From the IMG/VR virus record IMGVR_UViG_2711768072_000013, positions 1-4,106 of that record: a stretch of DNA of 4,106 nt; one strand, written 5' to 3'. Positions within the stretch are counted from its first letter, which is position 1. The number at the start of each line of letters is the position of its first letter. The translations under genes and the position numbers were made by a program. The notes beneath the pieces were generated by a model. That model was not told the DNA's origin and did not search any database. It saw nothing but the letters and a program-made list of their open reading frames with translations. Shown here one piece after another: positions 1 through 4,106 of the stretch. This DNA is from a virus. Lineage: Duplodnaviria > Heunggongvirae > Uroviricota > Caudoviricetes.

Positions 1-1842
1 CACTATGATGTTGTCAGGGCGGCGTCGCCGTCAGACCTTGCGGAAAAGCTGACACACAAACTGAAAGAGGGCTGGCAGCCATATGGCGGACCGGTTGCCA
101 TTACGCCGTACACACTGATGCAGGCGGTGGCTATTGAAGGAGATCCACAGGTCGGCCCTTCATCTGAGCCGGACTGGTTCTACGTGGTTGTGCTTGCCGG
201 ACAGTCCAACGGCATGGCCTACGGTGAAGGGCTTCCGTTACCGGATTCTTACGATGCTCCGGATCCGCGCATTAAACAGCTGGCGCGCCGCAGCACGGTA
301 ACTCCGGGTGGAGAGAGTTGTACGTATAACGACATCATCCCGGCTGACCACTGTCTGCATGATGTGCAGGATATGAGTACGCTGAATCATCCGAAGGCAG
401 ACCTGAGCAAAGGGCAGTACGGCTGTGTCGGCCAGGGCTTACATATTGCCAAAAAACTGCTTCCGTATATCCCGAATAACGCGGGGATCCTGCTGGTACC
501 ATGCTGTCGTGGTGGTTCTGCATTCACCCAGGGCGCTGAGGGGACATTCAGTGCGGACACGGGGGCCAGCCAGGATTCGGCACGCTGGGGTGTGGGTAAA
601 CCGTTATATCAGGACCTGATTGCGCGCACTAAAGCTGCATTACAGAAGAACCCGAAAAATGTGTTGCTGGCGGTGTGCTGGATGCAGGGAGAGTTTGACA
701 TGAGCGCCGCCACCTACGCACAGCAACCTGCGCTGTTTACAGCCATGCTGAAGCAGTTTCGTGCTGACCTCACTGTGTTTAACGCGCAGTGTCATGGTGG
801 CAGTGCTGTAAATGTGCCGTGGATTTGTGGTGACACGACGTATTACTGGAAAAATACATACGCTACCCAGTACGACACCGTGTACGGCGGGTATAAAAAC
901 AGGGAGAGTGAGGGCGTTTATTTTGTGCCCTTCATGACAGACGGTAACGGCGTCAATACCGCCACTAACGCGCCGGCAGAAGATCCGGATATTCCGGCAT
1001 CAGGATATTACGGTGCGGCATCGAGAACGAATGGAAACCAGGTATCATCAAACCGCCCGACACATTTCAGTTCATGGGCGCGCAGGAGCATTATTCCGGA
1101 TCGTCTGGCAACTGCTATTCTGAACGTAGCCGGGCGCACCTCAGCCTTCATCAGTGGTAAGGCACCGGAAATCAAACCCTCGCCCGGCGGCGACACGCCA
1201 TCGGGTCCGTCTGCAGATACGTCCGTTCGCACAATCTCCCTGCTGCCGACAGCCGGAGAGGCTGCTGCGCAGGGCTGGACCATTAAGGACGGCGGAATTC
1301 AGTTGTCGGGTGGTGTATTTAAGATCGCCAAGCAGAGCAATAAAACCTGGGCCCTGACGCGCCCGGTGGATGACGCAGTCTCCCTGCTGACACGGGGTGG
1401 CAGACTGAGCTGTAAGTTTCGACTGTCAGGCGCACTGACCAACAATCAGTTCGGTCTGGGAATTTATCTGTATACCGATGTAGCGTTACCTGACGTCGTG
1501 GCGATGACCGGGACTGGTAACCCGTTCCTGATGTCGTTCTTCACCCAGACCACAGACGGCAAACTGAATCTGATGCATCACAAGAAAGCAGGAAACACAA
1601 AGTTGGGCGAGTTCGGGAATTACAGTAACGACTGGCAGACGCTGGAGCTGGTGTTCACCGCCGGCAGTGCCACGGTTACTCCGAAACTGAATGGAGTGGC
1701 TGGCCCGGCATTCCAGGTCATAAAAGACAGTCTGACACTGGGGCTGAATGCGCTGACGCTGACGGATATTACCAAAAATGCAGCGTATGGCGTTGAGATA
1801 GAAAGTCTGGTGCTGGAGATAAATGCACCGGCATCATCATAA
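1..1842 (+). CDS. nanS-p: NanS-p-like prophage sialate 9-O-acetylesterase, 5'-partial. Esterase domain followed by a Pro/Ser/Gly-rich linker and a C-terminal putative carbohydrate-binding domain.
   Basis: Frame 1 is open from base 1 with no stop, so the ATG at 118 is internal and the true start lies upstream of the window. GQSN motif (VVVLAGQSNGMAYGEG; Ser codon at 205-207) matches the catalytic serine block of SASA/SGNH-type sialate O-acetylesterases. A linker (KAPEIKPSPGGDTPSGPSADTS, ~1160-1220) separates it from a ~200-aa C-terminal domain. Large esterase ORF directly upstream of the holin matches the arrangement recalled for EHEC lambdoid/Stx prophages. Stop TAA at 1840-1842. Confidence 0.75.
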   Translation, partial: HYDVVRAASPSDLAEKLTHKLKEGWQPYGGPVAITPYTLMQAVAIEGDPQVGPSSEPDWFYVVVLAGQSNGMAYGEGLPLPDSYDAPDPRIKQLARRSTVTPGGESCTYNDIIPADHCLHDVQDMSTLNHPKADLSKGQYGCVGQGLHIAKKLLPYIPNNAGILLVPCCRGGSAFTQGAEGTFSADTGASQDSARWGVGKPLYQDLIARTKAALQKNPKNVLLAVCWMQGEFDMSAATYAQQPALFTAMLKQFRADLTVFNAQCHGGSAVNVPWICGDTTYYWKNTYATQYDTVYGGYKNRESEGVYFVPFMTDGNGVNTATNAPAEDPDIPASGYYGAASRTNGNQVSSNRPTHFSSWARRSIIPDRLATAILNVAGRTSAFISGKAPEIKPSPGGDTPSGPSADTSVRTISLLPTAGEAAAQGWTIKDGGIQLSGGVFKIAKQSNKTWALTRPVDDAVSLLTRGGRLSCKFRLSGALTNNQFGLGIYLYTDVALPDVVAMTGTGNPFLMSFFTQTTDGKLNLMHHKKAGNTKLGEFGNYSNDWQTLELVFTAGSATVTPKLNGVAGPAFQVIKDSLTLGLNALTLTDITKNAAYGVEIESLVLEINAPASS

Positions 1843-1927
1843 AAAGTGAGCCAGTCAAATGGAAGGTATCGTTAAACTCACCGGTAGTGTCAGTGGGTCG
1901 TCTGAGATGCCTGCATGAGTTATCAGA

Positions 1928-1957
1928 GCCATCAGTACTTAACTGGTGGCTTTTTTT
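1928..1957 (+). terminator. Rho-independent terminator-like hairpin between the esterase gene and the holin
   Basis: GCCATCAG (1928-1935) pairs with CTGGTGGC (1943-1950) as an 8-bp stem with one G-U wobble and a 7-nt loop, followed immediately by TTTTTTT (1951-1957). It sits in the 150-bp intergenic gap ahead of the holin RBS. Confidence 0.45.
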
Positions 1958-1992
1958 ATTGTTGTCAGCTTCCGGATAACGGGAGACGGGGT

Positions 1993-2208
1993 ATGTACCA
2001 GATGGAAAAAATCACAACAGGTGTGTCATACACCACGTCAGCGGTGGGAACGGGCTACTGGTTCCTGCAGTTGCTGGACAGGGTTTCCCCGTCTCAGTGG
2101 GCGGCAATAGGCGTGCTGGGGAGTCTGCTGTTTGGGCTGCTGACATATCTGACTAACCTGTATTTCAAAATCAGAGAGGACCGTCGTAAGGCTGCACGGG
2201 GAGAGTAA
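1993..2208 (+). CDS. S: Class II holin (phage 21 S-type pinholin), 71 aa, with dual-start antiholin/holin motif
   Basis: Translation [71 protein letters not shown] closely resembles recalled S21 / 933W S holins: two TM segments and a charged C-terminus. GGAGA at 1982-1986 lies 6 nt upstream of ATG 1993, with a second in-frame ATG at 2002 (M-Y-Q-M). The ORF-track start at 1915 would make the terminator hairpin coding and is rejected. Confidence 0.9.
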
Positions 2209-2212
2209 TTCA

Positions 2213-2563
2213 ATGACTCAAAACTATGAACTGATTGTGAAAGGGATCCGCAATTTTGAGAATAAAGTTACGGTAACTTTAGCGTTACGGGACAAAAAAC
2301 GCTTTGACGGTGAAATTTTAGACCTGGACATCTCGCTGGACCGTGTTGAAGGTGCCGCGCTGGAGTTTTATGAGGCAGCAGCCAGAAGGAGCATCAGACA
2401 GGTCTTCCTGGATGTTGCTGCCGGGTTATGTGAAGGGGATGAGCAGTCGCCGGAAAAGCGCCCCGTAATTTTAGAGGCGCAGAATGTATGGATAACCTAC
2501 AAAGGAAAGCTACCAGGAAGAATTACTGGTTCTCTGAAGACTCCTCCGGAATCACAACCTTAA
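2213..2563 (+). CDS. Hypothetical soluble 116-aa protein inserted between holin and endolysin; likely DUF1327 (YdfR-like) family; function unknown
   Basis: ATG at 2213 lies 4 nt after the holin stop (TAA 2206-2208), with GGGGAGAG at 2194-2201 serving as SD, so it is translationally coupled to the holin. No hydrophobic segment. Codon usage looks AT-richer than the flanking genes by eye. Position between holin and lysozyme matches what I recall for ydfR in the E. coli K-12 Qin prophage; the family assignment is from memory, not a search. Confidence 0.65.
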   Translation: MTQNYELIVKGIRNFENKVTVTLALRDKKRFDGEILDLDISLDRVEGAALEFYEAAARRSIRQVFLDVAAGLCEGDEQSPEKRPVILEAQNVWITYKGKLPGRITGSLKTPPESQP

Positions 2564-2626
2564 GTCACTGACCGGAACAGATAAACCTGTCCGTGGGCAG
2601 AAACCGATAAATCCTGATAAATATCC

Positions 2627-3160
2627 ATGAACGCAAAAATCAGATACGGCCTGTCGGCTGCCGTTCTGGCGCTGATTGCCGCTGGTGCGCCTGCGCCTGA
2701 CATTCTCGACCAGTTTCTGGATGAAAAGGAAGGTAACCACACCACGGCATACCGTGATGGCGCGGGTATCTGGACCATCTGCCGCGGTGCCATCCTGGTG
2801 GATGGCAAACCTGTCGTTCCGGGCATGAAGTTGTCGAAGGAAAAATGCGACCGGGTTAACGCCATTGAGCGTGATAAGGCGCTGGCATGGGTGGAGAAAA
2901 ACATCAGAGTGCCATTGAGTGAACCCCAGAAAGCGGGGATCGCGTCATTCTGTCCGTACAACATTGGTCCCGGTAAGTGTTTCCCGTCGACGTTTTACAG
3001 ACGAATTAATGCTGGCGATCGCAGGGGAGCATGTGAGGCGATTCGCTGGTGGATTAAGGACGGTGGCAGAGACTGCCGTATTCGTTCAAATAACTGCTAT
3101 GGACAGGTCTCACGGCGTGACCAGGAGAGCGCGCTGGCGTGCTGGGGTATCGACAGATAA
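2627..3160 (+). CDS. R: SAR endolysin (signal-anchor-release lysozyme, T4-lysozyme/GH24 family), 177 aa
   Basis: N-terminal Gly/Ala-rich weakly hydrophobic segment (GLSAAVLALIAAGAPAP, residues ~8-24) is typical of a SAR domain. Catalytic spacing E35-(8)-D44-(5)-T50 in DEKEGNHTTAYRDGAGIWT matches the T4 lysozyme E-8-D-5-T triad. Near-identical to the recalled 933W/phage 21-type R. A pinholin paired with a SAR endolysin is the expected combination. Confidence 0.9.
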   Translation: MNAKIRYGLSAAVLALIAAGAPAPDILDQFLDEKEGNHTTAYRDGAGIWTICRGAILVDGKPVVPGMKLSKEKCDRVNAIERDKALAWVEKNIRVPLSEPQKAGIASFCPYNIGPGKCFPSTFYRRINAGDRRGACEAIRWWIKDGGRDCRIRSNNCYGQVSRRDQESALACWGIDR

Positions 3161-3248
3161 GCAGAATATTTTGCTGAAAATAAGGCATGGCCACGCGGGC
3201 GGATAACATGAAATCCTGCGAAGTGGCGAAACGTAAGTGAATAAAAGT

Positions 3249-3290
3249 AAAAACCCCGTTTGTTGGCAGCAAGCGGGGTTTTGTTTTTAT
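3249..3290 (+). terminator. Strong hairpin with 3' T-run (rho-independent terminator-like, possibly bidirectional) in the R-Rz spacer
   Basis: AAAACCCCG (3250-3258) pairs with CGGGGTTTT (3274-3282). The stem can extend inward (TTG 3260-3262 with CAA 3270-3272) around a 7-nt loop. It is followed by TTTTGTTTTT (3279-3288) and preceded by an A-run, so it could act on either strand. Confidence 0.5.
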
Positions 3291-3353
3291 GGCAGTAAGC
3301 TATGGGAGGCTGCCTTGATTGATTTTAGCAAACTGATTCGGGAGATTCGAGTG

Positions 3354-3452
3354 ATGGCTGAAAAATTATCCACCTGGAAGTTCATTCTTATCTGGCTGGT
3401 GTTTGTGATTATGGCCTCCGGTTATTTCATCGGTCAGATACGCTGGTGGTGA
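3354..3452 (+). CDS. Candidate 32-aa single-TM membrane peptide upstream of and translationally coupled to Rz (hypothetical)
   Basis: ATG at 3354 is preceded by GGGAGA (3341-3346) at 7-nt spacing. Product MAEKLSTWKFILIWLVFVIMASGYFIGQIRWW is one hydrophobic helix. Stop TGA (3450-3452) is 1 nt before the Rz ATG (3454). The longer ORF-track version starting at GTG 3237 would run through the terminator hairpin and is rejected. Confidence 0.35.
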   Translation: MAEKLSTWKFILIWLVFVIMASGYFIGQIRWW

Positions 3453-3453
3453 A

Positions 3454-3921
3454 ATGAACCGCGTACTGTGCGTGGTCATCATTGCCCTGCTGGTGGCCTG
3501 TGGTGCGCTTAGTCTGGGGCTGAATCATTACCGTGATAACGCCATAACCTACAAAGAGCAGCGCGATAAAAAAGTCAGTGAGCTGGAGCAGGCAAATGCA
3601 ACCATTACTGATATGCAGCAGCGCCAGCGTGATGTTGCTGCACTTGATGCCAGATACTCGAGGGAATTAGCCGATGCGAGAGCTGAAAATGAAACTCTGC
3701 GCGCTGACGTTGCCGCTGGTCGTAAGCGCCTGCGGATCAACGCCACCTGCCCCGGTACCGTGCGTGAAGCCCCCACCACCTCCGGCGTGGATAATGCAAC
3801 CGGCCCCCGACTGGCAGACACCGCTGAACGGGATTATTTCACTCTCAGAGAGCGGTTGATGCTGATGCAGAAGCAGCTGGAAGTGGCGCAGGAATATATC
3901 CGCACTCAGTGCCTGAAATAA
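3454..3921 (+). CDS. Rz: Rz i-spanin (inner-membrane spanin subunit), 155 aa
   Basis: N-terminal TM (VLCVVIIALLVACGALSLGL) followed by a coiled-coil-rich periplasmic domain. Blocks such as NHYRDNAITYK, ITDMQQRQRDVAALDA, VAAGRKRL, SGVDNA, PRLADTAERDYFTLRERL and MQKQLE closely match recalled lambda Rz. Confidence 0.9.
   Translation: MNRVLCVVIIALLVACGALSLGLNHYRDNAITYKEQRDKKVSELEQANATITDMQQRQRDVAALDARYSRELADARAENETLRADVAAGRKRLRINATCPGTVREAPTTSGVDNATGPRLADTAERDYFTLRERLMLMQKQLEVAQEYIRTQCLK
3674..3859 (+). CDS. Rz1: Rz1 o-spanin (outer-membrane lipoprotein spanin subunit), embedded in the +1 frame of Rz
   Basis: Lies entirely within Rz in another frame. Lipoprotein signal with lipobox LVVSAC|GS, and the proline-rich core CVKPPPPPAWIMQPAPDWQTPLNGIIS is near-identical to recalled lambda Rz1. 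True start may be ATG 3674 (GAGGGA upstream) or ATG 3689 (GAGAG 6 nt upstream). Confidence 0.85.
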   Translation: MRELKMKLCALTLPLVVSACGSTPPAPVPCVKPPPPPAWIMQPAPDWQTPLNGIISLSESG

Positions 3922-3949
3922 GTTTTGCTGATGCGCGGTATTGTCGCCG

Positions 3950-4014
3950 TATCCCCGCATTAACAGAGACCGCAGCCCGACCGGGAGACTCCTCTGCGCG
4001 AGTGTGCGGGGATA
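3950..4014. repeat. 10-bp perfect inverted repeat (TATCCCCGCA / TGCGGGGATA) flanking a 45-bp spacer with nested complementarity, in non-coding DNA after Rz
   Basis: TATCCCCGCA at 3950-3959 and its reverse complement TGCGGGGATA at 4005-4014. Nested CAGAG (3964-3968) / CTCTG (3992-3996). No ORF covers this region on either strand; all three minus-strand frames entering from the window end hit stops within ~90 nt. Confidence 0.3.
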
Positions 4015-4106
4015 ATCAAAAACGATACACACCGGGGTTTACCGCGTTAACGGAGCGCGGCGTTGTCCCCTCATAGTCGCCTGTCCGGTGCGATGGTGGA
4101 AGAAAC

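Follow-up and report, generated by a model that had tools for sequence, protein, structure and literature searches.

What is a gene for a small soluble protein doing between the two genes that phage 21-like cassettes use to open the host cell, and does it belong to lysis at all? The locus that raises this question lies in a 4,106-nucleotide stretch of DNA (positions 1 to 4,106 of IMG/VR virus record IMGVR_UViG_2711768072_000013), which we analyzed as a whole and refer to as the window. The window is a late-region piece of an E. coli lambdoid prophage, and all of its listed genes are on the plus strand. It opens with the 3' part of a NanS-p-type sialate O-acetylesterase gene (1-1842; Pfam DUF1737, SASA and DUF6645), whose product is annotated in matching E. 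coli genomes as 'SASA family carbohydrate esterase'; a NanS-p-type esterase upstream of the lysis genes is a typical context in Stx and other lambdoid late regions. A terminator-like hairpin (1925-1953, plus strand), recognized in a consensus scan by a 12-bp stem followed by a T-run, lies upstream of the start of the S21-type class II holin (pinholin) gene (1993-2208, 71 aa; PF04971, E=9e-33; PHROG holin). By tblastn, the encoded holin is 79% identical to K-12 EssQ. Its dual-start motif (1993-2004) reads MYQM-EK and is without the lysine of the MKSM-DK present in S21-type database entries.

The open reading frame (ORF) in question, read from the sequence as an ATG-initiated frame of 116 codons (2213-2563), is separated by a 63-nt spacer (2564-2626) from the gene for a SAR-type endolysin, a T4-lysozyme-like muramidase of 177 aa (R; 2627-3160; PF00959). 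This lysozyme matches the phage 21 endolysin structures 3HDE and 3HDF and RrrD 4ZPU in the PDB, and its N-terminus contains a Gly/Ala-rich, SAR-like segment, RYGLSAAVLALIAAGAPAP, with an E-x8-D-x5-T motif also readable in the sequence. Between R and Rz the consensus scan places a second, strong terminator-like hairpin (3250-3282, plus strand; 15-bp stem and T-run), and beyond it a small ORF for a predicted transmembrane peptide (3315-3452; phrog_6632, E=5.5e-20, profile positions 14-45). The latter could encode 45 aa from a TTG at 3315 or 32 aa from an ATG at 3354, and probably starts at the TTG, judging from the GGGAGG at 3304-3309 in front of it; it ends 1 nt ahead of the ATG of Rz. The Rz (i-spanin) gene (3454-3921; PF03245, E=8e-49) contains, in its +1 frame, the Rz1 (o-spanin lipoprotein) gene (3674-3859; PF06085, E=7.6e-21). 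An Rfam scan of the whole window gave no match at E<=1.

The 116-aa ORF is almost certainly a genuine accessory late gene of the YdfR family. Its product scores 143 bits against Pfam DUF1327 (PF07041; cutoff 25, E=3.3e-42) over profile positions 1-92 of 93, and contains the N-domain signature YELxVKG…V.VT…DR.EGA.LEFYE.A… of alignments A1 and A2. Purifying selection acts on both modules of the gene, with dN/dS of 0.26-0.47 over the N-domain (codons 1-72, pairs with dS > 0.3) and 0.11-0.39 over the C-module (codons 73-112). A spurious ORF arising by chance was rejected because of the DUF1327 score, these dN/dS values and a junction geometry that is the same in 98 of 98 related cassettes. The protein matches PHROGs 406 and 2091, each labelled 'unknown function', NCBIfam holds no model for it, and coverage of DUF1327/YdfR in the literature search was almost nil. 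The ORF has a GC content of 0.470 (GC3 0.462), compared with 0.532 (0.639) for the holin gene, 0.554 (0.607) for R, 0.556 (0.590) for Rz and 0.552 (0.601) for the esterase gene. Its product, with a mass of 13.0 kDa, a pI of 5.55 and a maximum Kyte-Doolittle value of 0.69 in a 19-residue window, has no transmembrane segment, signal peptide or N-terminal hydrophobic segment by Kyte-Doolittle and sequence inspection, and is therefore predicted to be soluble and cytoplasmic. A first-pass annotation of this DNA had described a soluble 116-aa ORF between pinholin and SAR endolysin, richer in AT than its neighbors (here, GC of 0.470 against 0.53-0.56), and had assigned it to DUF1327/YdfR, a family with no assigned function; the HMM search and the analyses above agree with that description in each respect, down to the exact coordinates 2213-2563.

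The protein is predicted to consist of two parts. Modeling with AlphaFold2 and a divergent alignment gives the N-terminal domain (residues 1-75, 2213-2437) a mean pLDDT of 90.0 and a pTM of 0.75, with three antiparallel strands (E5-14, E18-27 and E34-43) and a long helix (H50-71), a confidently predicted beta-beta-beta-alpha fold. The remainder (2438-2563) encodes a linker, the C-module PVILEAQNVWITYKGKLPGRITGSLKTPP and a short ESQP tail ahead of the stop codon; it is conserved in alignment A1, and the C-terminal 45 residues of the full-length model are of low confidence (pLDDT below 50). The structure prediction and fold search proposed in the first-pass annotation thus yielded a confident N-domain but no specific structural relative, and a search of PDB sequences with the family profile returned no match. 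We also considered a dsRBD, defined by an alpha-beta-beta-beta-alpha fold together with a significant sequence or structure match, and the window protein did not qualify as one.

Building the family revealed the same division, with a conserved N-domain of ~72-75 aa followed by shuffled C-terminal parts. The 116-aa form, comprising the linker and the ILEAQNVWITYKGKLPGRITGSLKTPP module, accounts for 71 of the 80 IMG/VR loci; K-12 YdfR has 103 aa, and other proteins of the family have 72, 104, 114, 169, 176/183, 263 or 268 aa. Pfam gave no match above threshold for the C-terminal extensions. Truncated or frameshifted forms are common, and mosaicism is extreme at the junction and extends into the N-domain: sheet alleles of the …RNFENKVTVTLALRDKKRFDGEI… and …NNYPDKITVTVALEIGGYPSLLL… types (alignment A1; L021-L023, L025 and L026) are combined variously with the helix alleles AAARRSIRQVF and AEAKKQAKQFF.

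The position of the gene relative to the holin is uniform. In the window, a Shine-Dalgarno (SD)-like GGGGAGAG (2198-2205) lies within the last holin codons, so that its GGAG core (2200-2203) is 9 nt before the DUF1327 ATG, and the holin stop codon TAA (2206-2208) is followed by a 4-nt spacer, ttca (2209-2212). Across 98 cassettes (18 curated and 80 IMG/VR loci), the DUF1327 ATG is 3-4 nt past an S21-type holin stop in every case. GGAG or AGGAG is found in the last codons of the holin in 17 of the 18 curated cassettes, two near-identical junction strings cover all 80 IMG/VR loci, and the paired holins are 76 to 100% identical to that of the window. Where DUF1327 is missing, the holin-coupled slot belongs to the lysozyme gene, which starts after a 4-nt gap or overlaps the holin by 1 nt, in all seven cassettes compared (Stx2_EH1846, POCJ13, P27, PhiR12_3, ev207, DLP12 essD-rrrD and Pectobacterium phage ZF40); one of these, the Stx2a phage Stx2_EH1846, encodes a holin 100% identical to the window's. 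A consensus scan found neither a sigma-70-like promoter nor an intrinsic-terminator-like site beside 2213-2563. Given this junction geometry, the occupation of the slot by R when DUF1327 is absent, and the lack of transcription signals of its own in that scan, DUF1327 is an insert of the late operon that takes over the slot of R and is translationally coupled to the holin. To what the first-pass annotation had already stated correctly, namely a start 4 nt after the holin stop served by an SD in the holin 3' end, and an endolysin directly following the holin in the canonical cassette, we add a slot rule: the holin-coupled start is taken by either DUF1327 or R. It is reasonable to infer from the geometry that DUF1327 would be made at the same time and dose as the holin.

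Several database proteins (P0013, P0032, P0039, P0084, P0093, P0111 and P0232) present holin and DUF1327 as a single fused chain (PF04971 + PF07041), with at least P0032 reading through as …AARESNSMTQ…. Loss of one nucleotide from the G-run of CGGGGAGAGTAA would produce such a read-through, so a homopolymer sequencing error is a more probable source than a real fusion.

The sequence in front of the endolysin gene also differs with the presence of DUF1327. The regions upstream of R were compared for the window (2564-2626) and for L001-L003, L007, L010, L021 and L023-L027. No SD-like motif is present at -22 to -4 of R in any of the 17 DUF1327-bearing cassettes that retain R, whereas R in DUF1327-less cassettes uses the holin-embedded GGAG. 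Instead, the 3' ~30 nt of the spacer (...CCGATAAATCCTGATAAATATCC) constitute a conserved SD-less leader, which ends in a ATAAATAT core whatever the distance between DUF1327 and R (-83 to +511 nt in the 17 cassettes) and which, read as …CCGATAAATCCTGATAAATATCC-ATG, contains GATAAAT twice. The gap is an identical 63 nt in 68 of the 80 IMG/VR loci. About 60 nt ahead of R, several relatives, though not the window, show a GC-rich hairpin (GCCAGTG…CACTGGCGGG). As DUF1327 shifts the start of R from a holin-embedded SD to an SD-less leader, its presence probably uncouples or lowers endolysin translation relative to that of the holin, judging solely from the absence of the motif.

The gene is very common within E. 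coli and has a very narrow taxonomic range. DNA homologous to DUF1327 occurs in 4349 of 5426 complete E. coli genomes (~80%), at 8617 places and up to 10 per genome, where it is annotated as 'YdfR family protein'. The same 5426 genomes hold S21-type holin DNA at 14924 places in 5010 genomes; about 58% of these places have DUF1327 and about 40% are without it. In a phage collection, 101 records have a DUF1327 homologue and 434 an S21-type holin (23%, leaving ~77% without the gene). The phages with DUF1327 are mostly Stx1a and Stx2c converting phages, and also include H-19B, BP-4795, phage 86 and mEp460. We consider the taxonomic range narrow because Escherichia and Shigella loci, together with two MAG contigs, were all that turned up when one genome per species (185,579 species) was scanned, and because 1.84 billion representative proteins, searched exhaustively with the profile, gave only 90 matches; a second protein search with a divergent alignment recovered mostly E. 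coli sequences. DUF1327 is, then, facultative cargo of Escherichia lambdoid prophages, including Stx prophages. Homologues assigned to a Veillonella parvula MAG, a Bacillota MAG and an Enterococcus faecalis record (L005, L007; P0070) lie in typical E. coli lysis cassettes, and these attributions most likely result from binning or assembly contamination. In the classic H-19B GenBank record (L021, AF034975.3) the DUF1327 ORF between S and R (1501-1845) is unannotated, and many Stx1a and Stx2c phage records are likewise without annotation at this ORF.

Clues to what the protein does come mainly from the K-12 homologue, as the N-domain of the window protein is 81% identical to residues 1-72 of K-12 YdfR, the region sufficient for interaction in the two-hybrid experiments. 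When RNase G served as bait in a bacterial two-hybrid screen, a ydfR fragment comprising the first 72 codons was recovered three times (Gopel et al. 2026, PMC13232886). The fragment of residues 1-72 interacted with Rne and with Rne 1-597, full-length YdfR interacted only with Rne 1-597, and Rne 1-598-FLAG co-purified with Strep-YdfR (PMC13232886). The YdfR eluate contained large amounts of DNase-resistant nucleic acid, although the authors could not exclude a contaminant as its source, and overexpression of ydfR produced few transcriptome changes and no growth defect (PMC13232886). These overexpression, two-hybrid and pull-down results offer a weak hint as to function and concern K-12 YdfR, whose C-module differs from that of the 116-aa form. 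Reports on a role of YdfR in lysis were not found in the literature search.

Taken with the genomic context, we would give about an even chance to the overall explanation that DUF1327 is a promoter-less, facultative accessory late gene whose product probably interacts with the RNA-decay machinery of the host. The gene would have no transcript other than the late one antiterminated by Q, on which it and the holin would be translated together. By homology to K-12 YdfR, the host partner of its beta-beta-beta-alpha N-domain would be the N-terminal, catalytic half of RNase E, with RNA as a possible further contact. The protein, expressed late, would then modulate host RNA decay or be its client, and would form no part of the lysis machinery. 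That last step, a role through RNase E or RNA in place of lysis control, we propose only tentatively, at somewhat less than an even chance.

The closest competitor is a dedicated lysis regulator, made with the pinholin and modulating lysis timing, for instance if it bound the pinholin's charged C-tail in the cytoplasm, or delayed the SAR endolysin in its release or activation. The adjacency to an S21-type holin and the translational coupling in 98 of 98 Escherichia cassettes speak for such a regulator, as does phiSTEC1575-Stx2k (L022, 1281-3299), in which the S21-type holin and DUF1327 are followed by two further holins and an M15 metallopeptidase that replace the SAR lysozyme. From this cassette, where holin and DUF1327 are kept and the SAR lysozyme is replaced, we conclude that DUF1327 within Escherichia stays linked to the holin, not to R, and the invariant adjacency, kept even here, could reflect a functional tie to the holin. 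The L022 arrangement amounts to a hybrid or double lysis cassette downstream of stx2k. As for the co-location of the gene with both pinholin and SAR endolysin, which the first-pass annotation had proposed to check, the S21-type holin is present in 98 of 98 cassettes, but L022 is without the SAR lysozyme and distant homologues are found elsewhere.

Those distant homologues, stand-alone proteins of 72-76 aa with 25-40% identity, occupy other positions in late operons: directly after a lambda tail-I-like gene (L011), in a tail cluster 28 nt upstream of tail gene L (L014), and ahead of unrelated holins, with a gene on the opposite strand intervening (L016), while a tandem two-domain homologue lies between the Q antiterminator and a different holin (L019). 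The common denominator of these sites is the late operon of lambdoid prophages, not the holin-endolysin junction, which argues against a dedicated role in lysis. A small convergent gene recurs after the stand-alone 72-76-aa DUF1327 genes. One family of such partners, of ~99 aa and 59-75% identical, is represented at L027 1744-2040, L012 693-992, L016 768-1070 and L017 937-1239 (all minus strand) and is common to the distant homologue contexts and E. coli phage Evi (L027); a second family, of 93 aa and 47% identical, is found at L011 1879-2160 and L013 335-616 (both minus strand). Pfam and PADLOC searches with these partner genes gave nothing above threshold. The stand-alone DUF1327 gene and its convergent neighbor may form a two-gene module; the window has no such partner.

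Further points weigh on a lysis regulator from both sides. Deletion of ydfR in K-12 was among the matches of a CPRG envelope-permeability screen (Paradis-Bleau et al. 2014), but in K-12 the end of ydfR and the start of rrrQ, the SAR lysozyme gene, overlap, and the phenotype is likely a polar effect on rrrQ of a kanamycin cassette that lies directly upstream of it and overlaps its start. The gene is also absent at the ~40% of E. coli S21-holin places and ~77% of phage records noted above, identical-holin phages among them, the protein has neither transmembrane segment nor signal peptide, and K-12 ydfR overexpression caused no growth defect. The speculation in the first-pass annotation that the protein could modulate lysis timing is weakened, by the homologues outside lysis cassettes, by identical-holin cassettes without the gene and by the K-12 overexpression result, and we consider a dedicated lysis regulator unlikely.

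A host-benefit or exclusion function, in which moron-like cargo would make the lysogen fitter or better defended, for example through tolerance of stress or antibiotics or through superinfection exclusion, is in our estimation a little less probable again. The gene has a deviant GC content, is polymorphic for presence and absence, and has been kept in the cryptic Qin prophage of K-12. In addition, ydfR overexpression is listed in an overexpression screen as raising the streptomycin MIC 3-fold (PMC12924614), and the Qin cluster is reported to be cold-induced (PMC13232886). Against this, ydfR reads were almost nil under standard growth (PMC13232886), none of the PADLOC defence models matched the window's protein (0 families at E<=0.1), and the protein is predicted to be cytoplasmic with no membrane anchor. 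The first-pass annotation had suggested a separately acquired moron. Composition and polymorphism fit that label, but the consensus scan found no promoter-like or terminator-like site belonging to the gene, so that expression in the lysogen is not obvious.

That the gene is a functionless passenger, recombination filler at a hypervariable junction kept only as a coupled start and spacer between S and R, would account for the mosaic junction and for proteins of 72 to 268 aa with shuffled C-terminal modules and common truncations and frameshifts, but is very improbable given the purifying selection on both modules, an N-domain conserved down to about 25% identity in distant stand-alone homologues, and its confidently predicted fold.

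A more far-reaching version of the preferred RNA-decay reading treats the post-pinholin slot as a dedicated cargo-expression site. Here a holin-coupled RNase E- or RNA-binding adaptor, the conserved beta-beta-beta-alpha domain, with interchangeable C-terminal effectors (giving the range of 72 to 268 aa) and often paired with a small convergent partner gene, would retune host RNA decay and endolysin translation during the final minutes preceding lysis. We regard this as a doubtful proposition that, if true, would mean that late genes of Stx and other lambdoid phages are controlled at a level not recognized before.

The gene, its family and its position are already known: because YdfR/DUF1327 has long been annotated, in thousands of genomes, and is optional cargo in most E. 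coli lambdoid prophages, the find itself is an ordinary one. What the present analysis adds is the slot-replacement rule, the SD-less R leader, the homologues outside lysis cassettes and the link to the 2026 RNase E data. DUF1327 is among the commonest uncharacterized genes of E. coli prophages, is present in Stx1a and Stx2c converting phages, and is located in the operon through which lysis, and with it the release of toxin, is controlled. Any real effect of the protein on RNase E, or on the ratio of holin to endolysin, would alter the timing of the burst and the release of Stx, and the slot-replacement rule and the RNase E lead together make its physiological role directly testable.

Compared with known systems, the window is closest to the Qin cryptic prophage of K-12, where YdfR (P76160), also a DUF1327 protein, is likewise encoded 4 nt after the stop of an S21-type holin and before a SAR lysozyme. 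The order in Qin is essQ, a 4-nt gap, ydfR, an ATGA overlap, rrrQ, a second ATGA overlap and rzpQ. The two genes differ at their 3' ends: K-12 YdfR has 103 aa with an unrelated C-terminus (…EKLSEKVESYLQHQYSFKIENPANKHERPHHKYL) and a stop codon that overlaps the rrrQ start (ATGA), whereas the window protein has 116 aa, ends in the ILEAQNVWITYKGKLPGRITGSLKTPP module that is absent from K-12 YdfR, and is followed by 63 nt before R. The cassettes of phage 21, DLP12 and Stx2a phages contain homologous holin, lysozyme and spanin genes in the same order as the window. In the canonical arrangement, however, a holin-embedded SD serves R, whose start lies 4 nt past the holin stop or overlaps it by 1 nt, while in the window that slot holds DUF1327 and R has an SD-less leader.

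The remaining comparisons concern the kind of gene that DUF1327 may be. Antiholins and other regulators of lysis timing, such as S107, S21-71 and T4 RI, are membrane or periplasmic proteins, and so able to contact the holin, by virtue of a transmembrane segment, a SAR segment or a signal sequence, and no such feature is found in the window protein, with its Kyte-Doolittle maximum of 0.69 over 19 residues. Lambdoid morons in the sense of Hendrix and Juhala are autonomous accessory genes with their own promoter and terminator. Like them, the window gene is an extra gene between conserved ones, deviates in composition and is present or absent among close relatives; unlike them, it lies within the late operon with its translation coupled to the gene upstream, and neither a promoter nor a terminator belonging to it could be detected. 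Phages also encode proteins that bind RNase E, among them phiKZ Dip, T4 Srd and T7 gp0.7. The likeness to these is that of a small phage or prophage protein binding host RNase E, as reported for the K-12 homologue of the window protein.
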